The notes: generated from the letters alone by a model not told the origin. A stretch of 64,000 bases of DNA from Prorocentrum cordatum (GCA_963575745.1 CAUYUJ010000092.1:248001-312000); one strand, 5' to 3'. Shown: positions 1-40,536, numbered from the stretch's first letter. Made by a program: numbers and translations.

Positions 1-13
1 GGTTTTCGCTCGC

Positions 14-1374
14 GTGCTGCAGGGCGTGGCTGGCATGAATATGGTTGACATTTCTGGTCTTTGCGAAGCTCTGGAAAACGGCGGCTTCCAGCATTTGTCC
101 GATTTGGGCGGCTCGGAAGCAAATGAATTGGTAGATCTCGCCCCTGCGTTTTCTGGACAGAACGTTGCGCTCGTCAAAGCCTTCTTGGCGCAGTGTCAGC
201 GCCGGGCCGACCGGGAGTTAGTGGCCGCGGCGTGCCGACAGGCAACGCGCACCGAGGCTACCTCGCCCTCTTCAGGGGCCGGGGCAGAGGCACAAACCCG
301 AGTTGCGAGCCAAAGCGATCCACGTGAGGCAGCCAACGACGAGCAAGGTCGTGCTGGCTTGATCTTGCTTGGTGAATCGCGCCGTGCTCGCGTTGTTCCC
401 GAACCTGCTGTGCTAGCAGCCGCAGCGGCGGCCGCCGCCTGCTGCAATTGCTATCCAGGGGCGGAACCAATTGGCAGGCCCCGTGAAGAAGTCAAACGTG
501 CACGTCGCGATGTTCCTGGCGGAGATCATCTCCATCTCCACACTCTGTGGATCGAGTTCGCTGCCTGGCGAAAAAGTGCTCCACTATACGCTTCCGCCGT
601 CCGCTTGTGGGGCGAAGCTGCCAGGGCCATTTCGGCGCGCAGCTGGCCACCGTCCGAATCTGTTCTCAATGCCTTTGTGGGGTTATTCCGTAATTGGAAC
701 TGTCTCCCTCTCGGTGTTCTCGACGACACAGAAAGGCTGGCCAGAGGTGCCGAGAAAATTACCCGAGACGTATTCAGGAGAGCGAAGATCCGGGCGACGG
801 CGGAAGAAACCAAACTCATCCGCAAGTGGTGCGCTGAAGCTGGATATCCGCTGTTGGCGGCGTCGTGGGTGATCGCTCGCCAATTCTGTTTGCGTTACTC
901 TGAGTTGCTGCTCCTCGGGTCAAATGTTGCGACATTCCGCTTCAGCGGCGATGAACGCAAAACCTGTGCCATTCGTTTTGCGCAGCGCAAATGTTCCAAC
1001 GAACCGTGTGAGACAACCAGACGTTGCATTTGTCAGCTGCACGGGCGCTCCTTGTGTGGCGTCTGCGAATTATTCTCTGTAGGAGCAGCAGTGTCGGTCC
1101 CCTTCGCGAGCGCGCAGTATGCCGACGCTCCTGCTGTTCTCAAACTTGCAGCAGCCGCTTTGCAGCTGCGGAGTGCTGCGGCCTGGGGCACGCACGCTTT
1201 CAGGCGAGGCTTTGCAGACGAGGCCAACAAGGAGGGCCCGCAGCTTTGTTTTTCAGTGGTGGTTGGAAGGGCGTGGCGGCTTTCGGTTACGTCAGCGCCC
1301 AAAGTCGCGGTGCTTTGTCGGCGGCCGAATGGCTAGTTGACCACTCCGACTCAAGTGACGGCGAGCAAGCCTGA
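14..1374 (+). pseudogene. tyrosine recombinase (phage-integrase fold) of a DIRS-type retroelement, frameshifted
   Basis: Motifs FCLRYSE (catalytic R) and WGTHAFRRG (HxxR). After a frameshift near 1235, GGW and AFGY (catalytic Y) appear in ORF 1024..1374. Paralogous to 10416-11906 and carries an internal deletion near 700 relative to it. Confidence 0.85.
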
Positions 1375-1481: not shown

Positions 1482-1604
1482 TGGGAGCCCAAGGGGCGGG
1501 TTCCCAGAAGGCTCCTGCCAGCCAGGCAGCGCCGTTCACACGCCCTATGCTGGCGCAAGGACGCCGGCCACTCTACAGTGGGCCTGGCTACCGCAATGGT
1601 TTTC
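1482..1604 (+). repeat. split direct repeat B1 of family-1 YR element
   Basis: Near-identical to 2563-2684 (one substitution, one indel); ends ATGGTTTTC. Confidence 0.9.
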
Positions 1605-1904
1605 ATGATTCATAAACTCGTTTATGCTGCGGGAAAACCATGAGGAGCAGCCCCACGTGTGTTCGCCTCCATTCCTCAGTTCCTGCGCGCTCAATGCCTG
1701 CGCAGCGGGCTGCGGTGTCGGCGGCCGGCTGTTTTCTGCGCGAAGCGGCGGAAGTGTGCTCACCTTGCTCTGTTCGTGTGTATTCTGGTGCGGTCTCGCA
1801 TGGCGGTTCGCCCGCGCTGCTCGGGTCTCGTCTGCTGGGCCGATCGCGTCTCGCAGTTCTTCTGTTGCTGCTCCCCCGCGCTGGCTCCTTGAAGCCAGAT
1901 CGAG

Positions 1905-2440
1905 AATGCTCCCTGATAGGAGCAGCGGCTAAAAAACTCGCTGACAGGGGCTGCACAAACAAGACAGGCCCCCTGATCGGAGCGGCGCCTCCGAAGCTCC
2001 CTGAAAGGAGCTGCGCCTGCGTGCTCCCTGATAGGAGCTAGCGGTGCCTAGCGCTCCCTGAAAGGAGCTGCGCCTGCGTGCTCCCCGACAGGAGCGGCGC
2101 CCTAAAGCTCCTTTTTTGCGCGTTCCCTGACAGGGGCAGCGGCCGAAAACTCCTTGACGGGAGCGGCGCCTCAAAGCTCCCTGATAGGAGCGGCGATTCA
2201 AAGCTCCCTGACAGGAGCGGCCCCCCAGAACAGAAGTTCGCCGAAGGGGGCGGCGCCCAATGCTCCCTGAAAGGAGCTGCGCCTGTGTGCTCCTCGACAG
2301 GAGCGCTGCCCCCCAGAGCTCCTTCTTGTGCTCCCTGACAGGAGCAGCACCCCCAAGCTCCCTGAAAGGAGCTGCGCCTGTGTGCTCCCAGACAGGAGCG
2401 GCGCCCCCGAAGCTCTCTAGCAGGAGTCGCGCCTGCGTGC
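1905..2440. repeat. tandem array of short hairpins GCTCC-CTGAHA-GGAGC with recurring linkers (~30-bp period)
   Basis: Repeated gctccctgaaaggagc / gctccctgacaggagc / gctccctgataggagc, in which GCTCC and GGAGC are complementary. Linkers such as tgcgcctgcgt and ggcgcctc.aa recur. Confidence 0.85.
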
Positions 2441-2562
2441 CTCCTGGGGCGGCTCCGTGGCGCTGCGCCAGCGCGCTCCCCAGCAACAGCTTGGCGGCTG
2501 TCTGCCAGCTTTCTGCCCGCCCTCATGCCACCCTATGGCCCGCGCCGGCGTCCTGCCCTGGC

Positions 2563-2684
2563 TGGGGGCCCAAGGGGCGGGTTCCCAGAAGGCTCCTGCC
2601 AGCCAGGCAGCCCGTTCACACGCCCTATGCTGGCGCAAGGACGCCGGCCACTCTACAGTGGGCCTGGCTACCGCAATGGTTTTC
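2563..2684 (+). repeat. split direct repeat B2 (right end) of family-1 YR element
   Basis: Near-identical to 1482-1604; ends ATGGTTTTC. Confidence 0.9.
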
Positions 2685-3278
2685 ATAGCCCCTACGTCGC
2701 GGGCGATTTGGGGGGCAGGAAAATATTGGGGATGGCCTTATTCGTGGCCTCTGGGCTTCCTGGCCTTCGGGCTTCCATGCATCCCGCGGCCTGGCTACCC
2801 CGGGAGGGGTGCGGCGGAGTGCGTTCGCCCTCTCAGCCTTTGGCCGCCTAGCGGTGGCGGATTTCGGCGTGGGGCTGCCGCGCTGTCTGCTCTCCTTCCT
2901 CCTTCGTTCTGCTGGCTGGTGAGGTTGGCTGATTGGATTCCGTCGCGCGGCGGCCCCTGGGCACGCCACTGGCCTCGCGCGGCCATTGTCACAGCGAGCG
3001 CGGATGGCATCTGCGGGGGTTACGCGCATGCCCCGCTGGGCTCGCTGCGCAGCCTGCGGGCCCGCAGTCGGCGCGTAGCGCCCACTGTCGGCGCCGCGAA
3101 GGCCCACCCGCGTCCACCCTGGTGCACTGCGTGCGTTTGGGGCGGTGCTCTTGCCAGGCTGGGCCCTGGAGAAGTTCCAGTTCGGGCCAGCCTGGCGGCG
3201 CCGGTGCTCTTTCGCACGCCCACAGTTGGCGCAGCGCCGCCCTACTTTGGCATGTGGGTACAGCCCAACAATATTTTC
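2685..3278 (+). mobile_element. non-coding ~594-bp mini A-B unit of a YR-retroelement family, abutting the end of element 1
   Basis: The 24-mer GCGATTTGGGGGGCAGGAAAATAT at 2703-2726 is identical to the left end of element 2 (3949-3972). GAAAATATTG (2719-2728) is the exact reverse complement of CAATATTTTC (3269-3278), the same end signature as the other units. Confidence 0.55.
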
Positions 3279-3948
3279 CGGGAGTCCGAACCCGAGTTGC
3301 CCTGGGCCCGGATTATTCGGGCGTCCAGAGCCCCAAATCATCAGGGCTAATTCAGGTCAGGGTTAGTTCGGGCTTGTTTTCGGGAATCCGAACTCGAGTT
3401 ACCCTGGGCCCGGGCTACCCCGGATGTTTCGGGCGCCAGACTGTGGAAAACGGGGGGCGCAACTCGGGCCGAACGAAAGGGGCGGATAGGCAAAGGGGGG
3501 GGGGTACGAAATCTGCTGCATGCAGCTGGTTTCGGCCCCGCCGCCGCGCCCATGCCTTGGTGCATGGGCGCCTCCCGGCGTCGGGGGGCGCTGGGAAAAG
3601 CAGCTGCGTGGGCCGATTCTCTGCCCTACCCTTTGCTATCCCACCCACCTCCGCCCCCCTCGCACAGGGAGGCAGACGACGAGCGCCCGCCTCGGAGCGG
3701 CCGGCGCAGGCGCACCCGCCGAGGGCGCGGCGGCCGAGCCAGCCGCGCGTCTCGGGTGACCAGCTTCTGGCCCCCTGCGGGGCGAGGGCGCCCACGGGCG
3801 GCGGTCGGCGCTCGTCGGCGATGGCCCGAAGCCGGGGCGGAGGGGGAGAAGGAAGCGAGGGGAGAGAGGAGGGAAGGCAACAATAGCGGCAGGTCGGGCA
3901 CGTCTCTCTACAGTAGGAGTATTACAGAAAAGCAAAAAGATAGTCGAA

Positions 3949-4360
3949 GCGATTTGGGGGGCAGGAAAATATGACGACGGAGCGCGTCATCATCCACTCT
4001 TCTCCTCTTGGCCTCTGAGGGCTTCTGGGGTTTGCGTTCGTGGCACAGGTGCCAATTAGTGACAAGCATGCTTGTCTCATATGCCTGGTGCTCTCCTGAG
4101 GGGGCAGGCGTATCTGCCTTGCGTCGTGCTCCTGAGAGAGCAGGTAACCCTGCCTCACACGCTTGGCGGCTCCGCGGGAGCTGGCGGGAGCCGTGATTAG
4201 GAGTCTGCTCCTCGAGGGCACGTGAAGCGCGTCGAAGGCCTCTGGTGATGGGAGCTCGTGGGTCCCTCGTCGCTGGTGCTATGCTGTTCAAGGTTGAAGG
4301 CTTGCTCGTGGGTCCTTCGTCGCCGGTGCTATGCTGTTCAAGGTTGAAGGCCAATTTCAC
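3949..4360 (+). repeat. split direct repeat A1
   Basis: ~410 bp, highly similar to 12202-12612. Contains an internal ~51-bp tandem duplication (gctcgtgggtcc.tcgtcgc.ggtgctatgctgttcaaggttgaaggc). Confidence 0.9.
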
Positions 4361-4522
4361 GAGTGCATTTCCGGTGCCGCTGAGCGCCGTTCCCGCACCG
4401 CTGAGTGCATTTCTGGTGCCGCTGAGCGCCATACTCGCACCGCTGAGTGCATTTTGGCGCCGCTGAGCGCCATACTCGCACCGCTGAGTGCATTTCTGGT
4501 GCCGCTGAGCGCCATTCTCGCA
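4361..4522. repeat. ~42-bp minisatellite, about 4 copies
   Basis: Unit ctgagtgcatttctggtgccgctgagcgccatactcgcaccg. Confidence 0.85.
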
Positions 4523-4699
4523 CCACGCCGTGAGGGCCACTCTCTCGCTGGCCCTCGCCGCCCGTGGTGGAACGCGGGGCGTGGTTGCTGCAGCCGCGAG
4601 GGCCGTTCTCTCTCAAGTGCTCGCCGCCTGCCATTCCCACTCTGTGCCGGCCAGTCTGAGGGCGACTGTGCAGTCGGGCGGCGTCCGCTGGCCCAGCAT

Positions 4700-5740
4700 T
4701 GCATTCTGCGCTCCTTCCTTTCTGCGTTATGGTGCCCAGGCGCACCCAGATTCGCAATCTGAGCGCGACGGGCGCTCCTGGGCGTCCGCGCGCCCAAAAT
4801 TGCATTATGTGCTCCTTTCTGCGTCTTGGTGCCAGTGCCATTGCACCCGGATTCGCAATCTGAGCGCGACTTAGCGCTCGTGGGCGTCCGCGCGCCCAGA
4901 ATTGCTTTCTGAGCTCCTTTCTGCGTTCTGGTGACCAGGCGCACCAAGATTCGCGATCTGAGGGTTTCTGAGCGTCCACGCGCCCAGAATTGCATTCTCA
5001 GGTCCTTTCTGCGTTCTGGTGCCCAGGCGCACCCGGATTCGCAATCTGAGCGTGACTTAGCGCTCCTGGGCGTCCGCGCGCCCACAATTGCATTCTGAGC
5101 GCCTCGCTGCGTTATGGTGCCCAGGCGCACCCAGATTCGCAATCTGAGCGCTTCTGGGCGCCCGCGTGCCCAGAATTGCATTCTGAGCTCCTTTCTGAGT
5201 TCTGGTGCCCAGGCGCGCCCAGATTCTCAATCTGAGCGCAACTTAACGCTCCTGGGCGCCCGTGCGCCCAGAATTGCATTCTGTGCGCTTTTCTACGTTC
5301 TGGTGCCCAGGCGTACCCAGATTCGCAATCTGAGCGCGAATTAGCGCTCCTGGGCGTCCGCGCGCCCAGAATTGCAGTTTGAGCTCCCTTCTGCGTTCTG
5401 GTGCCCAGGCGCACCCAGATTCGCAATCTGAGCGCGACTTAGCGCTCCTGGGCGTCCACGCGCCCCGAATTGCATTATGAGCGTTTTTTTTGTTTCTGCG
5501 TTCTGGTGGCAAGGCGCAGCCAGATTCGCAATCTGAGCGCGAGTTGGCGCTCCTGGGCGTCCGCGCGCCCAGAATTGCATTCTGAGTTCTTTTTCTGCGC
5601 TCTGGTGCCCAGGCGCACCCAGTTCGCAATCTGAGCGCCTCTAGACGTCCGCACGCCCAGAATTGCATTCTAAGCTCCTTTCTGCGTTCTGGTGCCCAGG
5701 CGCACCCAGATCCGCAATCTGAGCGCGACTTAGCGCTCCC
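4700..5740. repeat. ~90-105-bp tandem repeat, about 11 copies, in the 5' leader of the YR element
   Basis: Recurring ctggtgcccaggcgcacccagattcgcaatctgagcgcgacttagcgctcctgggcgtccgcgcgcccagaattgcattctgag. Confidence 0.9.
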
Positions 5741-6125
5741 GCGCGGCGGCCGCCTCTCCATTTACTACGGGATGTGCGTAAGCGCCCGTGCATCGGCCAT
5801 CTTCGCCGCGAAGAAGCGGCGCTCCATCACTTGTCGCCGCCTGGGGTTGCCTCCGACGAGGGGCGCGCGGACGGGGTCGAGTCTCTGGGGACTCGTAGTG
5901 GCATCCCTCTCCGAAGGTGTAGCGAGCCTGTCTGTGAAGATGCCCATGAAGTCAATTTCTGCAGGGAGAGCGGAAGACCGCTCTGAGTGCCATGCTCCCA
6001 GGGTACATTGCGTCTCTCGCTCCATGTCCGTAGCCGCCGGCTGAGGTACTCTCGTGGTGCACTTCTGCGCACTGCTTCGGTAATCAGCCCACTCTGGACC
6101 GCTGTTCTGTCTGCCACGTGTCAGC

Positions 6126-7446
6126 ATGTCTTTCTCTCGTGAGGAAATCCAGGCTGATCTCGACGGAATGCCGGGGAGTGCTTTCAACAGCACTTCGGCA
6201 GAGCAACGCGAGACATGGGTTCAATTCGTGCTCAGCTTGGAGGCAGAGCCCAAGGCCAGACACGATCTGCGCTGGTATACGGCAGTGGCCCGCATGATGA
6301 GCGAAGCCGTGAGCAGCGTCCACCCCGGTGACTTCGCGGATGAAGTCATCCGTGATCTGCTGAAATCGAGCATCAAGGTACATGATACGCCCTTCACTGG
6401 AGAGGGTAATCATTCGAGCTGGCAGGCCGTGAAAGCAACGCCGGCGATGCTCGTGCACGCTCTCCGCGCCCACGACAAGTGCTGCAAGGAGACCAAATCT
6501 TCCCAGGAGGCTACGGGCAGCACTGCCTCGAGCGCGGCCGAGGGCCTCACCAAGGCTATGAACGAGTTCGTGAAAGAGCCAGGGCGAGGCGAAAACGCCT
6601 GGCAAGAAGAGTCTCTCCTACGATCGCGCCACGCGCCCTCAGGAGATCGGCCTCGCGTTCTTTCCCAAGGGCGCCCTTCCCAATGAAGATCTGTTGATCA
6701 AATGGGAAGCTGCCAGCAGGGTGGCTGCCGAGAACGGGCGCCCCTTCGTGGGAAGCACGGATGGAGATGATCTCCAGCTCCTCCACCGGCCCGCCTGGCC
6801 CCGGAGCCCTGTCATCGACGATGCCCACCGAGGGCTCTTGGGAGGACCGCTTCAAGGCGAGCTTCGAGGTCCGCAAGGCCAGGGCGGCAGAGGAGAAGAC
6901 AACGCACGTTCCACGGATTTGCGGCCTTCATTGGTCATCTTTATTCGTGGGGCATGAAGCTGTGCTTCACCGAGGTCTGCGCGCCCACTGAGCTGCTGGC
7001 GTACATCTTCGTCACCAAGGTGGCCGAGGAATCCGGCGGCGTCAACACCGCATATCAATATGATCTGCTGGTGCGGAAGGAGATGGCTCGTGCATTTCAC
7101 AGCCAAGTGGTATTTCACGAACTTGGACCGGGACATGGTCCGCGAGGCCAGGGACAAGGCCGGCGATGCCCTCGCCCGCGCCAGCAAGAAAGGAAGTGGC
7201 CGCGGCGCCGGCTTTGCTGCGTCCGCGCCCGTAGCCGCCGGACCGCAGAGTCGGAGCGGCAAAGCGTGGCCGAAGGGTGCTGCTGCGGACAAGCGCCCGG
7301 TCAGGTCCCCCAGCCGCCAGCGCTCCAGAACCCCAGCTGCTGCCGGCAAGGGCGGCGGCAAGGGCAAGGGCGGCAAGGGCGATCACCGCTCCAGCACCTG
7401 GGCCGGCAAGAGCTCCGACTGGGGTGGCTGGAAGGATCGCCGCTGA
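6126..7446 (+). pseudogene. gag-like ORF1 of the YR retrotransposon, multiply frameshifted
   Basis: Lies directly upstream of RT. Coding-like pieces in ORFs 6126..6686, 6694..6991, 6954..7100 (AYQYDLLVRKEMARAF) and 7060..7446 (basic, Gly/Lys-rich tail). Confidence 0.6.
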
Positions 7447-7524
7447 GACGGCGATGGTGGTCCGGATAGTGACTCGGACTGGGGTGCCCGTTCAAGCAGT
7501 AGGGAGCGCCCCGCTTCTGCAGTT

Positions 7525-10157
7525 TTGCCTTTTGCCACTTTTAAGGACGCCGATGCGCCCCGCGTGGGAGCGATGACTCCCTGGACCCATCTGGAGTGGG
7601 CCCACTCTCTGCCTCGCGTCTCTGGCTCTGTACCTCTGCCGCCGCTTCTGGCGCGCGCAGTGGAGCGCTCCACGGCAATGAGCGCTGCTGAATTGCGTGC
7701 GTTTCGGGCAGAGAAGCTGGAATTTTGGCGCGAGCGGGAACGTGTGACGGGCCACGCCTGGGCACAGGAACGCGCAACTCTGCCGTGCCATGTGCGCGAG
7801 GTATTGGGTCCGGATAAGAATATCCGCTTGCTCGCTGAAATTGCGTCCGCCATGGAGTGGCCCGACGCAGCGCTGGCAGAGGATTTAAAGCACGGATTCC
7901 CGCTGCTAGGTCAGCTTCCGCGAAGTGGCACTTCGCCTGCAGTAAATTATAAGCCAGACTGCATAAGCGCACACATGCTGCTGGAAGGAGCCCGGTCCGG
8001 CAATAAATCGACACTGGCGCGGATTCGCCGGTCCGACATCGCAGAGCCTACGATTTCGCACGCTTTCAGTGCCAAGTGCGATGAGGGAGTCGAGACGCGG
8101 AAGGCTGTGTGGACAAAACTGTCGCCGGCTGATTCCATTATAACGGCTCGGTTTCCTGTGTTTGAAGGTTTCCGCGAGGACGCAGAGGGCAATTTGATCC
8201 CGAAGGTGCGTCTCGTGGATGATTTTAGCGATTCCGATGTGAATGCAGCTACGTCCGCCGGGGAGGCTCTCCCAGTGGACAATCTAGATTCGCTGGTTAG
8301 TCTAGCGTCTGCTTTAATCGCAGGGTGCGGCGAGCACGCTGAGATTCGCTTCCGAAAGGAAGATTTCAATAGCGCGTTCAAGAGTTTACCTCTTCGCGCG
8401 GACCACTTGCGTTTCGCCGTGGTCTCGTGGGCAGCGGCAGCAGCTGAGAACTCAGGACTGCAGTTGCTCGCGTGTCCTTTCGGGGCTTTAAGCTTGGTGC
8501 ATTCTTGGCATCGTTTTGGCAGTTTTGTCCAGGCGTTTTTAGCGCAGGAGTTTTTCATTGCCACGCCTCGCTTCGTCGATGATCTGATCTATTTTCGGCA
8601 GATCGCACAGAAGAGAATTCATATGAATCTGCGGGGCCGAGCGGCACTGCAAATTGCAGTCGCCAGGTGATCAACAAGCTTCTAGGCTGGGACTTGGATC
8701 AAAAGAAATCGGTCGACGATGCATCCAGCGCCACTGTGCTGGGAGTTTGCGCCCTCGCTTGGCCAGGCGCAATTGCTTTTTGGATCGGTCGGGAGAAGCT
8801 CGAGAAGTGGATCCGTTGTATAGATGGCGCCTTAGAGGCCAATTCCCTTCGGCCAGCTGAAGCCAAGCGTTTAGCAGGTCGGCTCAGCTGGGGCGGCTCG
8901 GTAGCTTTCGGCCGTGGGGCCAGAGCTTATCTAGCTGCTTTGCATTGGCAAGCTAACGGCAGGAGTGCGAGGATTCCGAGGCGCGTCCGGAACGCACTCC
9001 TGTGGCGGCGCCCTCTTCTGGGATCCTGCCCAACCCGCGTGGTCCAGCTGCATCCACATGAGGTACAGCGGTGTTTCGTGTGCACCGACGCCGCTGGCGA
9101 TGGGAAGATTGCGTTTGTGCTTTCTCATCCGGTTATGCGCGTTTGGTCTGCTGCCGCAGTGCCCGTGGTTGCGAAACGATGGGCCCGACCGCGCCGTGCG
9201 CAGATCTCTCTGTGGGAATTAGTGGCGGCCGTGTGTAGTCTGCAGTTCCTTCTTGATCATGGGCTCAAGGATTGCGAGACCATTCTGTTCATTGACAGCA
9301 ATGTCGCGCTTCATACCCTTGTTCGGTGCGCGAGCCGGCAGCAGGATTACAACGAGATTGTCAATGCATTTTGGTTCACTGTAGCCGCTGCAGGCGCCCT
9401 GCTACACGCAGTGCGCGCACCGTCAAAGTTAAATTTGGATGAATCATAAATTTATTTCTGCAGCAGGAAAATCATGAGGCGCAGTGCCCATTGTTTACAC
9501 CTCTACGCCTCTTTGCTTACACGCCTTGCTCACACGCCTCTGCCTGCGGGCGCGTGGCTCGCGCGCTTCTGCCTGCTTCGCGGGGGAAGCGATTCCCTGG
9601 CAGCGCGGCGGAAGAGCTCCTGCGCGAAACGGCGGAAGTATTGGCGGCGGCTTTGCAGCTTGCCGCCCTGGCGCTCCCTCCCAGATGGCGCAACCGGGGC
9701 GTGCTTGTCGCCCTCAGTCGCACGCGGCCTGGGGGCTGGCACCCCGCGCCTCGCCCGCGGCGCCTGGGGGCTGGGACCCCAGGTGCCCCTGGCTCTCTGC
9801 GTCTCGGGGTGGCGTCTGGGAGCCGGAGTGTTTGCTGAAAGGGGCTGCGCCTACTGCTCCTTGTCAGGAGCTTTGCCCGCCCTCGCCGCCCTTTGAGGCT
9901 TGCGCCGGCGCCTCGCCCTGGCTGGGAGTCTTTGGGGCGAGACCCAAACGGCTCCGGCCAGGCAGCGCTTCCCAACGTTCCCCTTGCTGGCGCAGGGGCG
10001 CCGGCCATCTCTGGAAATGGGCTGGCGCTGTTATGATTTTCCGGACGGTCCCACGAGAGATGAATCTTTTGAGGCATCTCGTGCCGAACTCGCGGAGCGA
10101 GGTTTCCGGCAAATTCGATGGGACTGGCCAGCCCGATTGCCGTGGCACACCCACTGA
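7525..10157 (+). pseudogene. DIRS-type reverse transcriptase / RNase H, frameshifted and interrupted by an insertion at 9439-10041
   Basis: RT motifs KVRLVDDF, KEDFNSAFKSLP, CPFG and RFVDD. RNase H motifs CTDAA, WELVAA and FIDSNVA. Removing 9439-10041 restores SKLNLADGPTR, continuing to the stop at 10157. Confidence 0.9.
9439..10041 (+). mobile_element. 603-bp non-coding mini A-B unit related to family 1, inserted in the RNase H codon for Ala (G|CG)
   Basis: Starts atgaatcataaa...ggaaaatcatgaggcgcag (compare 1605 atgattcataaa...ggaaaaccatgaggagcag). The last ~140 bp resemble family-1 B (gccaggcagcgc...tgctggcgca..g.cgccggcca...atgattttc). Precise excision restores the frame. No TSD. Confidence 0.85.
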
Positions 10158-10415
10158 ACAAGGCGTCGCAGTGGACAAAATGCATCGGCTGTCATCATCT
10201 CATCCATCGTTTGCGGGCCTGCAATCGATTGCAGGGGTGCTTCTTTGTGACTTCCCGCGAGCTGGCTTAAATTTCGAATGGTCAGGGCCGGCATTGTTCA
10301 AGGATCATGTGTTGTGGCAATGCTGCAGAGAATTAATAATTGGCTGCTGCTCGGCAGAATGTGCAGCGACGCTTCCCGTAGCGTCTGGCTCGAAGCCGTT
10401 TGGCTCAGCTTTGAG

Positions 10416-11906
10416 ATGAGCAGTGGTCTGCTTTCTTTTATCGATGCCGCTGCCGCCCAGGGAACCTCGGTAGGAGACAGACGCGTGCGTCCACGTGCAG
10501 ACACATGGCTATCACCTCTGTTGCGCAGAGCAGCGGCGGCTTCCGGTCATTCTGGCGATTTGGAGGGATTAGAGCGGAGGTTGCTCCAGGAGGGTGCGGC
10601 GCATGCGTCTGACTTCCTCGGCCTTTCAGTCAGTGAGGCAACTGAGATTTGGACGCCGCTGCAGGATTGGACCAAGGATATCGTAGACAGATTTCTCTGG
10701 GTATGTTCGCAATCGAATGTCAGTGCTACAGCGTCCGCGCCACCGCGGGCGCAGGCCAAGCCAATTCCGGCTGCCGGTCCACCGCCGGCGAGACGAGCAG
10801 CGGCAACAGGAGATTCAGGGAAGCAGCGGAGAGCCATGGCAGCTTTGGCGTTATGCGCCGCAGCGCGGCGATCTGCACAATTGCCTCCGCTAAAGATTCT
10901 GGCCGACGCAATCAGCGCAATGGCTGCTGTCGATGCGTTGCTGCTTGCACCGCCGGCGCAAACGCCCCGGGCGGAAGCAGAACGGTGGTCAGAGAGCAGA
11001 TCTGGGGAAAGTTTCGAGGAGGAAGCGATGTGGATTGAGTTCTGTGGCTGGAAGGCGAGCGCTTCGGGCCACGCTTCTGCGCTTCGCCTTTACGGGCAGA
11101 ATTGTATTCTACGCAAGCTTGAGCCCTGGCCCCCAGCAGATGCGCAAGTGGATGCGTTTGTCGTTCTCTTTCGCAGTGCTTCTTCACTTGGTAAATACCT
11201 TTCGTATTTGAGGACGATCTTGCGATGGATGCGTAGTCCTTTAGGGGCACTGCTCGACACAAGCCGCATCGCACGCGGAGCAGAGAAATCTGGAAGAGCC
11301 ATTCGGCGAATAAAAATCCGCGCGGCTGCTGAACAGACACGTAAGTAGGCGCAATGGTGCGTCAGCAATAATCAGCAGGACATTGGTGATTCATGAGTCG
11401 TATCTCGGCACTTCTGTCTCAGATAGGGTGAAACTTTGCAGTTGGGTCGTCCTCAGGCACAAGTTGTCACTGAAACTGTTGCAGGGGGAACCGAAGTTGT
11501 CCGGATAACTTTCTTCAATCGCAAATGTTGTGCTGAGCCGGTGGAGGTTTCGCGCCGGTGCATTTGCAAGTTGCAGGGCATGACGCTCTGCGGCACATGC
11601 GTGCTGAGGCGAAGGTTGGCGGACAGCGGTATCCCTTTCGCAAGTATTTCGTATAGCGAATCGCTGGCTTGCTTGAAGCTCGCTGCGCAGGCTCTGGGAT
11701 TCGCCGACGCGCGATCCTGGGGCACTCATGCATTCCGCCGCGGATGGGCCACAGAAGTAGTGCAGGCCAATGGGCCGGCAGCGCTTTTCTATTCGGGAGG
11801 CTGGAGGGGCGCGACGGCCTTCGCGTACGCTTCGGCCAAAGCCCGCGGTACACTGGAGGAAGCAGAATTCTTAATAGAATTCTCAGAGTCTTCCGGCGAG
11901 GACTGA
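10416..11906 (+). pseudogene. tyrosine recombinase of element 2, with nonsense and frameshift lesions at ~11346-11430
   Basis: HFCLR, CICKLQGMTLCGTC, WGTHAFRRG, GGW and AFAY motifs; paralog of 14-1374. Confidence 0.88.
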
Positions 11907-12077
11907 GCGTGGAAAACAATCAGGAGGAACAGTGAGTACGAAATTGATTGTCGCTACGCGGGCAGGCGAACACACACGCGCACACACACGCACACACACA
12001 CACACACCTGTGTGCATTGGGCTTCCACTTCTGCACAGGATGTGTCTGTCCAGGATGCGATGTCCCGGGGTGCACAG

Positions 12078-12187
12078 GGATACTGGTGGCTTTCGCCCCA
12101 AGACATCGCCGGCCAGACGTGCGATTAGAGTGTACCCTGTGTACGCACAGGAGCGCAAACCCACTGAAGGGATGGAGGAATATTCTC
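12078..12187 (+). repeat. split direct repeat B1 of element 2
   Basis: 110 bp, with few mismatches to 12744-12853. Confidence 0.9.
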
Positions 12188-12201
12188 TCAGCCCCCAAAT
12201 C

Positions 12202-12612
12202 GCGAATTGGGGGCAGGAAAATATGACGACCAAGCGTGTCATCATCCACTCTTCTCCTCTTGGCCTCTGCGGGCTTCTGGGGTTTGCGCTCGTGGCACAG
12301 GTGCCAATTAGTGACAAGCATGCTTGTCTCACATGCCTGGTGCTCTCCTGAGGGAGCAGGCGTATCTGCCTTGCGTCGTGCTCCTGAGAGAGCAGGTAAC
12401 CCTGCCTCACACGCTTGGCGGCTCCGCGGGAGCTGGCGGGAGCCGTGATTGGGAGTCTGCTCCTCGAGGGCACGTGAAGCGCGTCGAAGGCCTCTGGTGA
12501 TGGGAGCTCGTGGGTCCCTCGTCGCTGGTGCTATGCTGTTCAAGGTTGAAGGCTTGCTCGTGGGTCCTTCGTCGCCGGTGCTATGCTGTTCAAGGTTGAA
12601 GGCCAATTACAC
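12202..12612 (+). repeat. split direct repeat A2 of element 2
   Basis: Matches 3949-4360. Confidence 0.9.
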
Positions 12613-12743
12613 CTGTTGGTAATAGTCTATTCCTGGTGCCGCTGGGCGCCATCTTGCACCGCCGAGTGCTGCAGTTTCGGCTGCCTGTGGGTTGCTTTAA
12701 TTCCCAGCCCTCCCGCCCTCGTGGGTTATGCGCTCTCTGGCCA

Positions 12744-12853
12744 GGATACTGGTGGCTTTCGCCCCAAGACATCGCCGGCCAGACTTGCGATTAGAGTGAA
12801 CCCTGTGTACGCACAGGAGCGCAAACCCACTGAAGGGATGGAGGAATATTTTC
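12744..12853 (+). repeat. split direct repeat B2 (right end) of element 2
   Basis: Matches 12078-12187; ends ATATTTTC. Confidence 0.9.
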
Positions 12854-13074
12854 TGGGGACGATGTTTCGATTGTGCTTGAGCATTTGTTGAGCATGTTTG
12901 GGGTATTTGTTGTCCAAAATCCGCTTGTAGGGGGCAGGCCCGACCTAACAATAGCGAAAGGAGGAGCAGGAATGAAAACGGGGGATGGAGGCAAAAGATG
13001 GAGGGAAGGCGTGGGGGAAGAAGACATCGGCTCGCCTTTTCTCTCCTCTTCTCTTATTTTCTCTTCTCTTCGCT

Positions 13075-13435
13075 TCCCTTCTCCTCCTCCTCCTCCTCCT
13101 CCTCCTCCTCCTCCTCCTCCTCCTTCTCCTCCTCCTCCTCCTCCCCCCCCTTCCTCTGTCTCTCCGCCTTCTCTTTCTCCTTCTTCTTCCTATGCCTGGA
13201 GGACTCCTCGGCGGACCACGACTTGCTCCGGGTAGACTCGGGATGGCAGCTTCGGGTGGCAGCTCCAGCAGACGATGACGCCGTCACCACCCAGACAATA
13301 GAGGACAGAGGGGGACAACGGATGAGAGAAGGACGGGGAAGAGGACGACAAGGAGGAGTTGGGCGAAATGAGTTTGCAGCTGTGACAGGAGGAGGGAGGA
13401 GGAGGAGGAGGAGGAGGAGGAGGAGGAGGAGGACG
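13075..13435. repeat. (CCT)n and (GGA)n microsatellites
   Basis: Pure tracts at ~13080-13145 and ~13395-13433. Confidence 0.9.
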
Positions 13436-16400
13436 AAAAGGACGAGAGCAGGAGGAAAGGGACCAGAGTTACCCAAGCATGCATCAACGATGCTGCAATA
13501 CACCCTCCCTTCCCCGACTACCCAACGACTCTTCTCTCGCGGACAAGAGCAAGCCAGTGCGATTCTGTACCTCCATTCGGTTCCATCGTCATCGGGCAGG
13601 TTGGTCTGGGACGATGTGGCCAATCATTACACCGCACGGGCCCTTTGCCATTATGGCTCAAGCGGCGTGTTGCGGTGGCCTGCCTAGGAAATCGGCTGGC
13701 GCTGCTGGTCTGCTTCGACACGGGCTCCCCAGAGGTCGCCGCTCCGGCCGTGAGTTTGCTTGCCGAGCTCACCGCCTGGCATGCTGGGCGGTGCCGCCCT
13801 GCTGCGACGAGGGCGGCCCAGAAGGCCACGAAGCTGCCGGCCGAGCTCGCCGGGCAGCGTCGTGAGCGCCGCCGGCCTGCTGCGACAAAGGCAGGCCGCG
13901 AGACGGCTGGCGATTTGGGCGCGGCAACCTTGCTGCGACGAGGGTGGGCTGGAGGTTGCCGCGCGGGCCGCGGACCTGCTGGGTGGGCTTGCCAGCCTGC
14001 TGCGGCACGGGCGGCCTGGAGATCGCCGCTCGGGCCGTGGGGTTGCTGCCCGAGCCCGCGGGGGCCGCTTGCGAGCTGGGCGCGCCCAGCCTGTGTTACC
14101 TGCGACGGGGGTGGCCCGGAGCTCGCCACGCAGGCCGTGAAGCTGCTGGCCGTCCTGGCCGAGGCAGCGAACGCTTTGGTCATCGTTTTCGTATTCCTTG
14201 TTTTGCCGATCGGCGCGGGCCCTCGCACCCCCCCCCCTCCCCCCCCAATGGAGTAGATCTTGGCTGTTTTCGGCGCATGTTCCCAGCAGGTGGAGGCCCT
14301 CCCCATAGGAGGACGCACTGTCTCAAACAGTCCTGCCAGGCAGAGGTCTGGAGCCAGACCTCCCCCCCCTCCCCCCATTCCGCCCAATGTCGACACGCCG
14401 AAGAAGAAAACGCTCGCCCTGCCAGCCCGCCAGGAGGAGGCCGCCGCGCGGGACGCGAAGTTGCTGGCCGAGCTGGCCGACGGTCTCACCGCTCGGGCTG
14501 CGCAGCTGCCGGCCGAGTGCGCCGAGGCACGGTGCTGGGCGCCGCAGCCCTGCTGCCTGCCACGGGGGCGGCCCAGCGCTCACCGCGCAGGCTGCGAAGC
14601 TGCTGGCCGGCCTGGCGAGCTGTCCCACGCCGTGCGGCTGGCGTTGCGGCCTGAAGCGACGAGGGCCTTCCCAGAGGTCGCCACAGCGGCCGCGAGGCCG
14701 CTGGCCGAGGCAGCGTTCGGGGCGCCGCCAGCCTGCCGCGACGAGGGCGGCCCAGTGCTCGCCGCGTGGGCCGTGTAGCTGACGGCCGATCTCGCCAGGC
14801 TTTCCTCGGAAACTGGAACATATGCATTACCAGTGGCGGGCGGTTTCTCAATCCCAGGACTTCTTGAGGGCCGAGGACGACGCTGGGGTGGGGTGGTGTA
14901 TAGGTTGTTCCCCGATGTCCTGGGGAAACAACGAAAAAATGTATACACCAGGGTCCCGTATACACCAGGATCCGCTCTCCAGTGCAAATTCCAATGCAGG
15001 GCCGGAAGAAGCGTCGGTGTATAGAGTTCGGTTCCCTATTTCCCCGAGTCAAGAGGGTGTTCGCCAAGCGCGGCACAAAGACCCGACGTCGGAAGTGCTC
15101 ACGGCAACAGTCCTGCGGTCGGGAGTTGTTGGATGGCGTGTCGCTCCGCCGGTTGGCCCACCACGCGTCGGCGCGACACGCTATCCACGTCCCTGTCCCC
15201 GAGCGTCAATGTTCCGAGGCTTTCCGAGCCTCCCGCCCCGCGAGGCGGAGCGACGTGCTGTCCACTCGTAAAGCAGCACAGCGTGCCGCCGGGGCCGCCG
15301 GGGTGACACGCGAAGCAGAAGTCCCCGACCGTACAGATTTCTCGACGTATCTTCGGGGGTGGACACCCCCGCCCTGACACGTCGATTAGTGAATTATCCG
15401 TTTTCGGTTCTCGAGAGGGCGCCGTGGCCCTCATGTTCCAGGCTTGCGCCCGCCCGATTTGGGCTCGAGGTTGTTTTCCCTAAACCACGTTCTGCTAAAG
15501 GGGGTTCTGTCCATCCCCGGTTCCTGGAGCTGCGAGACAGCCTCCCGCTGGCGCGCTGCCAGTCGTTGCGGCTGCTGGGTGGCCAGGGCGCGGCCTGCTT
15601 GGCGATTGCTGTGCGAACGCTGCGCCGCCGCGCGGCCAGCTCCGCCGTCCTCGAGCGCCTCTGAGGCGAGGCCGCTCCTCAGCGACCCCATGGCGGGCTG
15701 CGTCCCGGGGCGGCCCCCTCACCAGAGCTGCTCCCGGACGGCCCCGGGTGCACTGTCGACGAGGGTGCTGCGCGGTTCGCGCCGGAGTGCGACGGCCTCG
15801 CGAGCGGCCCCCCAGGGCTGGGTGCCGTCCCGGGCGGTGCGCGCCGACATGCGGCGTCCTGGTGGATGGCCCCATGACGGGGGCTGGCCCCGTGACGGGG
15901 CGCATTGGCGGGGGTGAATGCGGGGCGGCTCGCACCAGAGCGCGACGTCATGGCGAGCGGCCCCATGACGGGAGATGCTTCCGCATTGCCCAATGCTGGG
16001 GGGCAGTGTCAGGCGTGAATGTTGGGCGGCACGCGCCGGAGTGCGGCGTCTGGCGGGGCGGCCCCATGGTGGGACTGCGCCCTCAAGGATGAGTGCGAGC
16101 AAGGGCGACAGCGCATCTCCATTCATGAGGTGGATACACAGCTTTGGCGAGAGGCAGAACTGCACAGCAGCCGTGAAGGCCAACAACGCCGCCTTCTCCA
16201 GGTAGAGGCCGGCTTTGAGAAGGCCCTTTCCCCAGGCATCACGCGCGCGAATCTGGTATTTCCTCTCGGAGTGCAAACTTTTCTTGAAAAGCCGACGTGT
16301 CCCGTCCTCGGAATAGCCAGACTTTGTTCAAGGCGGGCATGCGCGTCGTTTCGGCCGAGGCCAGAGTTTGAAAACGAACTACCATTCATCCGAACAGTTG

Positions 16401-35239: not shown

Positions 35240-35307
35240 TCGGTTCCTGTGCCCACGGGAGCTGAGCTCGCTCGCCGCGCCCAGACCTCCTGCCCGTGCT
35301 GGCGGAG

Positions 35308-38300
35308 ATGGCGGCGATCGATGTCGTCGACGTTCGGACCGACATGAGGCTTCAGAGGTTCGATGGTACGGACGAGAGATGGGCAGACTGGAGCCTCAGG
35401 TTCGAGGCCTACACCGCGCTGCTTGGCATGGAGGACCTCATGACGGAGGCGGCCAACAGGCGCGACCCACTGGCAACGGACCAGCTGGGGGACCAGGCGA
35501 GAGCGGTCAGCCAGAGGCTCTGGCATCTGCTGATCACGTGGTGCGACGGCAAGTCGCTGGGTGTGGTCAAGCTCTCGAGGAAGAATGGCCTGGAGGCGTG
35601 GCGGCAGCTCAAGATCGAGTATGAGAGCAAGTCGGGCAACAGGTGGACGGCCATGCTGCGCTTCATCCTGAACCCTCAGGACAAGTGGGCGAAGGATCGG
35701 GAGTCGGGCATCGACTTCTTTCAGTCTCTCACGGCGTGGGAGGCCATCGTCGCAGAGTACGTGGACCAGAGCGGCGAGGCGGTCTCGGACAACGTTCGAG
35801 TCAGTGTGCTGCTAGAGCACGCGCCAGAGCCGTACCGTGAGGTCCTTCGGCAGGCGCCTGAGGAGGTGAAGCTCACGTTCGCAGCGGCTCGGAGTCACAT
35901 CAGGGGCTACTACAATCAAGGGCGGACGTTCACCCACGTCCCAGACACTGGCGGGGTCGTGCCGATGCAGGTGGATGCAGTTCGAGTTGGACTGCATGGC
36001 GGCAAGTCGCACGGGAAGTCGGGCAAGACAGGCAAGATGGACAAGTCAGGGAAGTCTGGCAAGAATGTGAAGGGCTGCAAGGACTCGAAGACGAAGTCCA
36101 AGAACCGCGACGGCAAGCAGGGCCATGGCAAGGGCCAGTCCGACTACTTCGACGGCGAGTGTGGCTACTGCGGCAAGTGGGGCCACAAGCGGGCCGACTG
36201 CAGGAAGAAGAAGGCAGATGAGGCCAAGAAGGAGACTGGCAACACTCGCGCGGTTCAGGGAGATGGATCGGCCTCGAGCTCGGGACAGCAGCAGTCCGAG
36301 GGCGGGGTCCGCGCCGCGTCGGGCTACTACGACGGCGTTCCCGACGGCTGGGTGTTTGCGGTCTCAGCGGCGACGAGCGGCCAGGTGGCGAAGGTTGGAG
36401 GCTCCATCCTGATCGACAGCGGCAGCGACGACCACCTGTGCAGGCACAAGTTCGTCCCAGAGGCCCCAGTCAACAGTGCGACGGATGCCCCCAGGCTTTT
36501 CGACGTGCAGCAGCGACCGCTGCCCACAGCGGGCCTACGGGGTGTTGAGATGACGATGCAGGAGGGCATCAAGGCGACGGCAGACTTCCTCGTTGCCGAT
36601 GTGAATGACGACCTGCTGAGCATGGGCAAGCTGCTCAGGCAGGGTTTCAGGTTCAACCTCAGCATGGAGGACGGGCTCTACATGACGAAGGGCCACCGCA
36701 GCGTGCAGCTTGAGTTGGAGCGGAACAGCCTTAGGCTCCCGATCGTGTCCGCGAGCCTTGCGCCAGCGGCCCACCACTGCTGCGGCGCGGCAGGCCAGCA
36801 GCAGGCAGCGACGGCACCAGTGCTCACGGCGGAGAGCTCGGTCGGCGCGATGAGGACCAGGCTGAGGGAGCTGTTCATGCCGATCTACGGCACGAAGTTG
36901 GAGCTGTGGGAGCGGCTCATTGTGGCAGAGGCGGCTGCCAGGCGCTCGGAGGCGGAGAGGCTGCACAAGCTGGCGGTGAAGGAGCAGCTCGGGATTCAGC
37001 ACGATCCAGTCGAGCCGAAGCAGCTTCCAGTTCCGAAGGCCCCGAGCGCGGAGGAGGAGAGACAGCATCGCCTCACGCATCTCCCTGCTGCTCCGTGGTG
37101 CGAGGAGTGTGTCAGGGCCAAAGCTCCTGATGCACCTCACTCGCTGGTCAGGCTCGAGGACTCAGAGCAGAAGCACCCACTCATCAGCTACGACTTCGGC
37201 TTCTGCAAGACAGCCGACGAGGAAGGGGACCTGACCAAGGTAGAGGACACCTACGCGACGATGCTGGTGGCGTTCAGCTCTGACACTGGAGTGGTGAAGG
37301 TTATTCCGTGTGCGTCAAAGGCAGCTTCACCATACGCCATTGCAGGCATCAAGTCCTTCGTGCAGAGGCTCGAGACGGGCAAGTGCAGGCTCAGGACGGA
37401 CACGGAGCAGGCGACGAAGGCCATCATGGACGGCGTGGTCAGCGAGCTCGCGGGCAAGGTCACGGCAGAGCTGACCCCCAAGCACAGCAGCCAGTCGAAC
37501 CCAGCGGAGGCAGCGGTGAAGATAGTCGAGGGCCAGACGAGGGTTCTTAGGCTGGACCTCGAGAAGCGCTACGACACGAAGGTGACGGCGGCCATGCCAA
37601 TCTGGGCGTGGATGATGCGTCACGCTGGGTGGCTTCACGAGAGGTTCTCGAGGCGAGCTGGAGGTCAGAGCCCGCACGAGATCGCGACAGGCACGCCGTA
37701 CAAGGGCGACATCTGCAACTTCGGCGAGACGGTGCTGCATCGGGTTGCGCGTCCTGCGCATCGAGGTCTCACTGGAGGTCGGCGTCTGCATCGAGGCGAG
37801 GCTCAGTGGGGCAAAGGGATCTGGGTCGGCAGGTCGGACGAGTCGCAGGAGCACCTGGTGATGACGCCTCGGGGGCTTGACCGCGCACGGACGGTGCGAC
37901 GGCTCCCTGAGGGAAGGCAGGCTGACAAGGAGCTCCTCATGACGGTGACGGGGCTGCCTTGGGCTGCGAGGACGGCCCCCGAGAGGTCGAAACGCAGGCG
38001 GGCGCCTCAGCAGATCGCGACGGAGCTACCGAGGGCAGAAGGACCTCTTCAGCCTGACGCTCCCCAGCCGCAGCAGGCAGGACAGCCAGAGGGCGGAGCA
38101 GCGCCTGCTCAGCCTCAGGCACCGCAGCAACCACCTCCGCCGGCAGCGGCAGCGGCTCAGCAGCCGCAGCCCCCAGCACCAGAGCCGCCGGCGCCCAGGG
38201 ATGTGGCGATGGGGGCGGCGCCCTCGCAGGCAGCGAGACGTGGGGTCTCGCCAGCAGCAGAGGTCTCCGAAGGCAAGCGAGCACGAGTTGCAGCGGTTCA

Positions 38301-40536
38301 CGCGCTGGAGGTTGGCAACGTGGATGACTCGCCTGACGCGTTCTGGGAGGAGGTCTCGGATGAGGTGGAGGACCCGACGGATGGCATGTTTGACGTGGAC
38401 ATGCAGGATGAGCTGGACAAGAAGCTCACCATGGAGCACCTGCAGAGCCTCCTGGACCATGGAGTCGGCGAGGACATCGCCAAGTCGGAGGCGAATGGGA
38501 TGAAGCACATCACCACGCGCTGGGAGAAGCAATGGAGATGAAAGCCAGCGTTGCAGGAGTGGCAGCGCAAGGTGCGGTTCGTCTGCCGCGAGTTCCGCTG
38601 GCAGGAATGGCGTGACGACCTGTTCACACCTGGATCGGCTCCGATCTCCAACAGGTTGGTCGACTTTGTGGCTCTCAAGCGCGGGTTCGAGGTGATGACG
38701 CTCGACGCGACGGATGCCTTCTACCAGGCCCCAGAGTACGAGGACGTGGTGGTTGACCCCCCGCAGGAGTACTTGGACATGCTCAGGGCGGAAGGCAAGG
38801 ACACGGAGATCTATTGGAAGTTGAAGAAGCAACTACCTGGGAGACGGACGGCAGCGCCAGGCTGGGTGGAGCACATGGCGGGCATCCTCACAGACGAGAT
38901 GCAGATGACCAGATGCGAGGTGGCGCCGCAGTTCTTCTACAACCCTGAGACGGAGGTGGTGGTTGAGCTGCACATGGACGACTTGCACATGGCTGGATCC
39001 AAGGAGGCGCTGGAGGGCTTCCGCGATGAGCTGAAGCAGCATGTGACCTTCAGCGGCGGGGAAATCCACGAGTACGGCACCACCTACGAGCACCTGAAGA
39101 GGCTGAGGACGAGGTACGAGCACGGCACAGAGCTGCAGGCCAACCCGAAGTACCTCGATTACGTGGTGGAGACCCTCAACCTCGGCGGCCCCAACACGGC
39201 TCCCACTCCTGGAGTGCCAGCACACAAGGCGCTCATGGGGAGCACTCCTACTCTCTCTCAGCAGCAGGCTGGCGTCTACCGCTCATGCGTGGGGGCGCTG
39301 ATGTACTACGTCCAGGACAGGGCGGACTGCCAGTACGAGGTCAGCTTGCTGGGCAGGATGCTATCAGGCCCCACCGTCGGCGCCTTCACTGCGCTCAAGA
39401 GGCTCGTGAGATACCTGCTTGGGACGAGGAACGCGGTGAACTGGCTACCGAGACCGACGGAGGGCACGAACGTGGAGCTAGTGGGCTTTGGTGACAGCGA
39501 CTGGGCAGGCGACTTGCAGACGAGGAGGTCCCAGTCGAGCGGCAAGATCGAGATCGATGGTGTTCCCATGCACTCGTTCAGCAGGCGCCAGAGCATCGTG
39601 GCCACTAGCTCAGGAGTTGCTGAGTACTATGCGGCGACGGCGGTCGCCGAGGATTTGCTCTACTTCAAGTCACTTCTTGAGTTCATGGGCTTCACGGTGG
39701 CAGCCACCCTGCTGACGGATTCGTCAGCTGCGCGAGGCATTGCCCGACGTGAAGGAGTTGGTAAGGTGCGGAGTCTTGAGGCTCGAGTTCTTTGGCTTCA
39801 GCAGGCGATCAAGAGGAAGCTGATGGACCTCGGGACTGTCGGCACCGACGACAACAAAGCGGACCTGGGCACGAAGATCCTTGGACACGATCGCTTCGTC
39901 AAGCTCAGGACGCTCAACGGCATCTACACGGACATGGGCCAGGTCGCGGAGAGTAACCATCAGTCGGAGGAGGTGGACTTCGACGTGGGGGCGGCAGCAC
40001 GGGTCAGGAGCTCGAGAACTTCTACGAGCTCACTCGGTGCTAGTCGCTCGGCGGCCCTGGCTATGATCACAGCGGCGGCGACGCTCCTGCAGGGCTGCGA
40101 GGGCCAGGTCGCCGACCAGAGCAACTACTACTACGACACGGAGGTCTGCTCCAGGGATGGCATGGCCACGAGCGACTGGACAGGTTTCCTGATGATGGTG
40201 GCTGTCTGGACACTGATCGTGGCGGCCATCAGCGGCTACGCGGGGTTCCGCTACGCCAGCATGCGGGACTCGGACTGGGTCCTGGTCTCGCCCGAGCCCA
40301 ATGAGATGACAGAGGAGACCACCCACACAGACAAGATGGAGGATCCGCTTCCAGGCGTGCCAGCCTCACTGGTTATGATGCGACCGAGTCAGCCTACCAG
40401 GAACGTGAGCACGCAGTCCCAGATGACCTACAAGTGGAAGTGGGCGGTCCCTCGATTCCAACCAGTCCAGGACCACGCGCACGGTGCCTTCCTTGAAGTG
40501 CGTGTGGACAAGGCCAAGGGACTTCTTTTGAACTGA
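35308..40536 (+). CDS. copia Gag-Pol polyprotein with a single in-frame TGA at 38539-38541
   Basis: CCHC knuckle CGYCGKWGHKRADC, protease LIDSGS, integrase HLPAAPWCEEC / YDF / RTD / E, RT LDATDAFYQ and LHMDD, RNase H GDSDWAG / AEYYA / TDS / NKADLGTK. ORFs 35296..38541 and 38551..40536 are in the same frame. Confidence 0.93.

Follow-up and report, generated by a model that had tools for sequence, protein, structure and literature searches.

The question raised by this locus is whether the repeated units found along a contig of Prorocentrum cordatum are ordinary parts of retrotransposons or mobile cassettes in their own right. The stretch analysed, hereafter the window, comprised 64,000 nucleotides (nt) of GCA_963575745.1 CAUYUJ010000092.1:248001-312000, and a first-pass annotation of it had proposed that shared palindromic, attachment-like sites link two tyrosine recombinase (YR) retrotransposons and two cassettes of about 600 bp that can be stacked head to tail as in integrons. 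Our analysis led us to the following reading, which as a whole we consider highly probable: two degraded Ngaro-type elements (elements 1 and 2, E1 and E2) that carry their own A2-B2 tails, two isolated A-B units (U3, 594 bp, and ins603, 603 bp), and a nested palindrome at the junction between the B and A repeats. The repeat layout was obtained by repeat finding and self-BLAST of the window, and the features on which the argument depends are listed below (RT, reverse transcriptase; ORF, open reading frame).

2..1374, + strand: tyrosine recombinase gene of E1 (ORF 2-1336); its 5' part and the rest of E1 lie outside the window
1482..1604, + strand: repeat B1 of E1, 98.4% identical to 2563-2686 by self-BLAST (1482-1606 matched)
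1596..1641, no strand assigned: B1/A2 junction palindrome of E1, with outer arms ATGGTTTTC/GAAAACCAT, inner arms CATAAAC/GTTTATG and the boundary between 1604 and 1605
1605..2562, + strand: repeat A2 of E1, between B1 and B2, its start homologous to the other A starts
2563..2684, + strand: repeat B2 and 3' end of E1, from repeat finding and self-BLAST
2685..3278, + strand: U3, isolated A-B unit of 594 bp and of a third family, which abuts E1 B2 with zero bases between
3941..4408, + strand: repeat A1 of E2, its 5' boundary uncertain within 3941-3945
4680..5725, + strand: leader of E2, a tandem array of about 11 copies of 98 nt, from repeat finding
6126..7469, + strand: ORF1 of E2 in two frames (6126-6686 and 6954-7469), Gag-like by position only
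7525..9438, + strand: predicted RT and RNase H of E2, the portion before the insertion, 72-73% identical to the intact homologue P0006 of 656 amino acids
9439..10041, + strand: ins603, isolated A-B unit of 603 bp inserted in the RNase H gene of E2 with no target-site duplication
10042..10157, + strand: C-terminus of E2 RNase H after the insertion, by comparison with P0006 residues 621-656
10278..11906, + strand: tyrosine recombinase gene of E2, in a single frame with 3 internal stop codons
12078..12187, + strand: repeat B1 of E2, with 97.3% identity between 12078-12188 and 12744-12854
12180..12225, no strand assigned: B1/A2 junction palindrome of E2, with outer arms ATATTCTC/GAAAATAT and inner arms GCCCCCAA/TTGGGGGC
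12188..12669, + strand: repeat A2 of E2, from repeat finding and self-BLAST
12744..12853, + strand: repeat B2 and 3' end of E2, from repeat finding, self-BLAST and motif search

Element 2 was found to have the full A1-[ORFs]-B1-A2-B2 layout, with 93.2% identity by self-BLAST between its A1 (3949-4408) and A2 (12202-12669) repeats, and no target-site duplication was seen in its flanks. The split direct repeat typical of Ngaro elements was thus complete in E2, and E1 retained its B1-A2-B2 portion, in which A2 also held a tandem array of 27 nt units at about 1908-2446. An A1...B1A2B2 arrangement with internal repeats downstream of the YR gene defines Ngaro, PAT and VIPER elements (PMC4157794; PMC8547959; PMC13465315). 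Since this split direct repeat is the defining feature, the A2-B2 tails at 1605-2684 and 12188-12853 belong to the elements themselves and are not cassettes. The A-B cassettes of the first-pass annotation therefore stood only as the units at 2685-3278 and 9439-10041, which are isolated and match known solo AB repeats.

The repeat boundaries were examined by motif search, and every end and start motif was recovered at the position that the annotation had given, including the sharp TTTTC ends. The motif ATGGTTTTC occurred at 1596 and 2676 (ending at 1604 and 2684), CAATATTTTC at 3269 (ending at 3278, with a further copy at 43138), and ATGATTTTC at 10033 only (ending at 10041). The end motif of E2, ATATTYTC, was located at 12180 and 12846 (ending at 12187 and 12853) and also at 3271, 43140 and 46868. 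Among the reverse complements, GAAAACCAT, GAAAATATTG and GAAAATCAT were each detected once, at 1633, 2719 and 9467, respectively, and GARAATAT was present at 2719, 3965, 12217, 20180 and 43750.

Complementarity of the arms was assessed by comparing the last 9 nt of each B repeat with the first 60 nt of the matching A repeat, using 20000 mononucleotide shuffles of the A start. By this test, all nine positions were complementary in E1 (offset 28, equalled by 2 of 20000 shuffles), in ins603 (offset 28, 12 of 20000) and in U3, where one extra pair was gained at offset 34 and no shuffle of the 20000 did as well. The end of E2 B2 paired with A2 at 8 of 9 positions (offset 29, 69 of 20000 shuffles), and that of E2 B1 at only 7 of 9 (1002 of 20000) because it reads TTCTC. 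The claim that each unit carries the reverse complement of its own end 28-34 nt into its start was borne out by these values. The arms were found to differ between families in a compensatory manner, reading ATGG/CCAT, ATGA/TCAT and ATAT/ATAT ahead of a constant TTTTC/GAAAA.

When folded as single-stranded DNA, the E1 junction formed one nested hairpin of -9.7 kcal/mol (z -3.9, with none of 200 shuffles as good) and the E2 junction likewise formed one of -9.9 kcal/mol (z -2.6, with 2 of 200 as good). Combinations of an end with a start folded at z -2.9 to -6.2, and four controls, in which an end or a start was paired with its actual flank, at z -0.3 to -1.3. In this palindrome, outer arms of 8-10 nt enclose an inner stem of 7-13 nt, for a total span of 45-55 nt; in all four families the boundary between B and A coincides with the inner edge of the left outer arm, and the nested structure is whole only if the end of a B adjoins the start of an A, that is, at B1/A2 or in a circle. 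Two variant junctions of the E2 family were detected in sequencing run X1, one with 13-nt inner arms around a 3-nt centre and the other with different inner-arm letters that were still largely complementary. Homology of E2 A1 to the junction began only at about 3941-3945, the centre of the inner palindrome, so that the left inner arm is missing at this site; an X1 contig, in which 12202 is joined to 3945, displayed that inner palindrome whole. The palindromic B/A junction put forward in the first-pass annotation thus held for the inner palindromes and for the covariation of the arms, and it required correction for E2, in which the arms are imperfect and A1 is without its left inner arm.

Joints of this kind in X1 and in a second run, X2, were taken from contigs, not reads, of sequencing runs (four runs, with small word shares).

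The ins603 unit provided a filled site and an empty site for comparison. A 1487-nt contig of X1 joined 9438 to 10042 with 0 shared and 0 extra letters, and this direct joint identifies ins603 as an insertion that is delimited to the base and lacks a target-site duplication, as the annotation had anticipated. The P0006 homologue runs uninterrupted across the same position (...KLNLADGPTR..., PSKLNLADGPTR), and the reading of E2 proceeds as ...PSKLNL to 9438 and resumes as DGPTRDESFEASRAELAERGF from 10044. Integration without target-site duplication, a property of the DIRS order, was accordingly observed at one defined insertion, 9439-10041. Contigs of both X1 and X2 joined 10041 back to 9440, with one letter replacing 9439, and from this back-joint it follows that a B/A junction of the ins603 family exists elsewhere. 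A full-length parent should contain such a joint, and it would look no different in a tandem array or a circle.

The starts of U3 and ins603 could be aligned with those of the A repeats in the full elements, and their ends with those of the B repeats (for U3, the start with the A starts of E2, and the end with the B ends), and neither unit contained an ORF or carried genes. Units of this type are reported as solo AB repeats of the Ngaro elements of Cafeteria burkhardae, scattered both within other mobile elements and in their surroundings (Hackl et al. 2021, PMC8547959); the authors attribute them to recombination between 5' and 3' repeats, akin to solo long terminal repeats (LTRs) (PMC8547959). 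Both 2685-3278 and 9439-10041 have the form of such solo AB repeats. A single exact head-to-tail abutment was present in the window, between 2684 and 2685.

The right flanks that follow the terminal TTTTC at 10042, 3279 and 12854 all three start with YGG(G)A (CGGAC, CGGGA and TGGGGA), which may be due to chance or to a slight preference for certain targets. The stretch 3270-3736 is a short repeat of very high copy number, with a summed contig depth of 3452 in X1, 15762 in X2 and tens elsewhere; loose contig ends piled up at 3497 and 3557, and the repeat bears no similarity to the A and B units. Hidden units with a B end or an A start were sought within 3279-3944 and rejected, as local alignment to 8 probes scored at the shuffle mean.

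The proteins were compared with known families by sequence and by structure. For the tyrosine recombinase, 28 homologues were found, and an alignment of 19 sequences displayed the conserved columns CLRYSE, RRK, HAFRRG and GGW...AFGY. The canonical motif of tyrosine recombinases is R...K...HxxR...W...Y, and columns corresponding to it were present in this alignment. The E1 protein was 89% identical to homologue P0157 and contained one frameshift near 1240, with the tail in the other frame (1243-1374) carrying SGGWKGVAAFGY; in the E2 protein, HAFRRG and GGW...AFAY lined up with the invariant columns. An AlphaFold model of P0157 built on the YR alignment (pLDDT 77) had as its top Foldseek matches Cre, then XerH, Tn1549 Int and lambda Int, with a probability of 1.00 and E 7e-3 across about 320 columns. 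On the basis of the conserved columns and the modelled fold, E1 and E2 are predicted to encode tyrosine recombinases, and together with the split direct repeats these data agree with the annotation in recognising two retrotransposons of the YR type.

The predicted RT and RNase H of E2, which undergo a change of frame near 8670, retained visible FVDD, TDA and N.AD motifs, and further support for the assignment was indirect. The homologue P0006 had 2999 relatives at E<=1e-3, 14 of which were scanned against Pfam: P0134 passed RVT_1 (2.2e-12) and P0029 matched it below the cut-off, RVT_3 was found in 2 (P0024 above and P0029 below the cut-off), RT_RNaseH in 1 and nothing in 10. The family profile matched the RT of Moloney murine leukaemia virus at E of about 0.01 and its RNase H match was at 0.065, and the structural neighbours in the Atlas included RVT_1, Dam and RT_RNaseH clusters at a TM score of 0.62, with the few taxon labels among them being Perkinsozoa. 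Since P0006 (656 amino acids) ends directly after RNase H and the YR ORF follows about 120 nt on (from 10157 to 10278), the layout is of the Ngaro type, with no methyltransferase; there was no Pfam match of any kind in the elements, and no methyltransferase-like domain as in PAT-like elements was found after the RT and RNase H.

We also examined whether the junction is kept in relatives. Nine metagenomic loci were found to encode YR relatives, and six of these extended at least 400 nt downstream of the YR. In four of the six (L002, L004, L005 and L007), a perfect inverted repeat, 8 nt or longer, was detected with its left arm ending 233-250 nt past the YR match, the corresponding distances in the window being 230 nt for E1 and 281 nt for E2. 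An inverted-repeat scan gave 12 clusters in about 8 kb, and on a hand estimate of about 0.15 expected per 100-nt window, finding four of six is unlikely by chance (roughly p = 0.005, by hand arithmetic). The relatives folded at z -8.3 (L004), -7.3 (L007) and -2.5 (L005), with arm sequences unlike those of E1 and E2. Only L004 carried both B1 and B2, with the hairpin between them. A search for B2 on the 3' side of the hairpins yielded nothing above the shuffle maximum at L001, L002, L005 and L007, and was borderline at L009 (37 against a shuffle maximum of 34, for 1832-1894 against 2298-2367). YR relatives were also sought in genome and viral contig collections, in which none were found. At L008, a 75-nt direct repeat (98.7%) at 3764-3838 and 4614-4688 flanks a fragment of a recombinase gene, with a hairpin directly after the first copy; this locus may represent a further stacked or truncated arrangement.

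Several observations weigh against the reading of the locus given at the outset. None of the seven ORFs of the window matched Pfam at E<=0.01, five proteins rescanned against Pfam at E<=10 gave rows at chance level only, and because of this lack of Pfam matches the families PF00078 and PF00589, which published Ngaro elements match, were not matched directly; the YR sequence profile likewise had no relative in PDB. The A1 repeat of E1 would lie outside the window and was not seen, B1-A2-B2 being the part present, and E2 A1 is without some 14-17 nt found at the start of A2. For each contig joint, a run supplied a single contig, matched at 85% likeness or more. The junction hairpins have little stability (-7 to -10 kcal/mol when folded as DNA), and by raw folding energy these AT-rich hairpins, set in GC-rich surroundings, ranked only 30 of 32 bins for E1 and 24 of 38 for E2, and among relatives 15 of 18 for L005 and 8 of 24 for L007; raw energy was outstanding only at L004 (1 of 19) and L002 (2 of 60). 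No inverted repeat was present at the expected place in L001 and L009. At L002 (2174-6098), a junction-like hairpin about 230 nt after the YR was followed by no B2 within 3.9 kb downstream, and A2-B2 may have been lost from this locus, leaving an A-int-B form.

The low rank by raw energy, along with the frequency of 8-nt inverted repeats in the loci of the relatives (the 12 clusters noted above), would fit palindromes that are meaningless matches arising by chance or from low complexity. This we regard as extremely unlikely, given that perfect 9-nt complementarity occurred at the same offset in three families with only 0-12 of 20000 shuffles reaching it, that the differences between families are compensatory, and that the position was kept in four of six relatives. 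According to our favoured reading, the B/A junction would be the site that is recognised by the element's recombinase when a circular copy inserts; in the standard model of the order, the circle junction recombines with the target and no duplication is made. The isolated A-B units would then be remnants of recombination between A1 and A2 or between B1 and B2, or of excision of the coding part, much as solo LTRs. The palindrome might instead serve replication, with a hairpin in the RNA or complementary DNA (cDNA) priming or guiding strand transfer or end regeneration at B1/A2, by analogy with the internal complementary region and the proposed 3' hairpin primer of DIRS-1. The DIRS-1 literature states that an internal copy of the junction is needed after first-strand synthesis, that a 3' hairpin is proposed as the primer and that the cDNA intermediates are mostly single-stranded; moreover, the covariation of the arms is as compatible with base pairing as with symmetric protein binding, and E2 A1 begins in the middle of the inner palindrome as though its end had been set by a hairpin. 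However, the hairpins are weak and each of the four families has its boundary at an arm's edge, as would result from a recombinase that cuts beside its binding arm, and we consider such a replicative role possible but doubtful. The two roles are compatible with each other.

Greater autonomy was granted to the A-B units by the first-pass annotation; in such a model the recombinase would resolve the two B/A junctions of a circle, or excise A-B from the chromosome, to give a mini-circle that inserts elsewhere or next to the ends of resident elements and so builds integron-like head-to-tail stacks. The ins603 unit indeed consists of precisely one A and one B, is sharply bounded and lacks a duplication, the back-joint from 10041 to 9440 in X1 and X2 fits a circle or tandem array as well as a parental B1/A2, and the heterologous unit U3 begins at the base next after E1 B2. 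We nevertheless judge self-mobile units to be unlikely, as recombination between A1 and A2 leaves an identical solo A-B (the published reading for Cafeteria, PMC8547959), the back-joint is expected in any full-length parent, a single abutment was found, the units are gene-free, and the run data are contigs that hold no circle-specific evidence. For the abutment itself, a template switch between co-packaged RNAs at TTTTCAT could have placed E1 and U3 in one cDNA with no second integration. The motif TTTTCAT spans the boundary in both E1 B1/A2 and E1 B2/U3, and the E1 repeat extends to 1606 and 2686; yet this is a single case in which the seven common bases are in part the conserved end motif, and we find the switch improbable. 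More speculative still, and in our estimation quite improbable, is that the junction hairpin is used in folded, single-stranded form like attC or the attP of CTX, with A-B mini-circles moving and docking on resident half-sites. As a complete copy carries two B/A junctions, the recombinase would also release A-B mini-circles, and a folded substrate would fit the single-stranded cDNA intermediates described for DIRS-1; if true, it would constitute a eukaryotic, retroelement-borne counterpart of cassette capture. Sequence alone does not separate the recombinase-site, replication, self-mobile and template-switch readings.

Within the literature searched, no recombination site was defined for any Ngaro or PAT element. 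Three features of the locus, namely four related families whose ends are exact to the base, one empty site and a palindrome with co-varying arms, together make the B/A junction a concrete candidate for such a site. The fresh detail is limited to the small nested palindrome at the repeat junction, the anatomy being otherwise ordinary for the class. The literature searched, which did not extend to the primary Ngaro descriptions, gave no account of a palindromic B/A junction, and PMC8547959 and PMC6681497 mention no palindrome or hairpin; because the primary descriptions lie outside that search, the palindrome is not claimed here as new. The RT and YR form part of a large lineage that is missed by Pfam, with the few taxon labels pointing to alveolates (Perkinsozoa), and as the Pfam models miss this lineage, elements of this kind are probably under-annotated in the genomes of marine protists.

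Other features of the window were as follows. ORF1 of E2 had no Pfam match. Just 3' of E2, two opposed microsatellites, (CCT)n at 13077-13156 and (AGG)n at 13387-13456, lie about 230 bp apart. A Copia-type retrotransposon was present at 35266-40536 (+ strand), in which an ORF at 38542-40536 matched Pfam RVT_2 at 5.4e-9 and was preceded by an ORF of 1091 amino acids with no family match; the stretch is transposon-rich. An assembly gap of 100 N occupies 62372-62471, and no RNA gene was detected by Rfam or tRNA scans across the entire window.

The attC sites of integrons and the folded attP of the CTX phage are imperfect hairpins in which shape is kept above sequence and the crossover lies at the inner edge of the outer arm. 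The junction described here resembles them in shape only, by its imperfect hairpin, off-centre crossover and head-to-tail order. Unlike integrons, the locus has no IntI-type integrase and no promoter-plus-gene cassettes; the units are non-coding repeats without ORFs and without an attI or IntI context, and in the E2 and U3 families just 2-3 nt separate the outer and inner stems, which differs from attC.

Closer parallels are found among retroelements. According to published accounts, DIRS1-like elements share with those of the window an internally placed copy of the joined ends, self-complementarity at the junction, the absence of target duplication and insertion into resident copies. Their terminal repeats are inverted, and they contain an internal complementary region (the 'circle junction'), whereas the terminal repeats here are direct, the palindrome at B1/A2 is a short one of about 45-55 nt, and the boundary falls away from its centre, on the left outer arm's edge; the trinucleotide that is common to junction and target in DIRS1-like elements had no counterpart at the single insertion defined here, which has 0 shared letters. 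A similarity to solo LTRs is that a lone terminal-repeat unit remains where a full element once sat, but the unit here is an A plus a B rebuilt from a split repeat, for which an origin by homologous recombination is inferred. The PAT-like elements (Pat1, Toc3 and Kangaroo) have split direct repeats and a tyrosine recombinase, as here, and carry a methyltransferase-like domain, which the elements here do not. The Ngaro elements of Cafeteria have the same A1-[ORF1, RT/RNase H, YR]-B1A2B2 order, no methyltransferase and solo AB units; their proteins are reported there to match PF00078 and PF00589, whereas the RT and YR here do not reach these models, and the likeness is one of layout. Taken together, the elements of this locus are two degraded DIRS-order (tyrosine recombinase) retrotransposons with a Ngaro-type layout, and among known kinds they stand nearest to Ngaro, solo AB repeats included.

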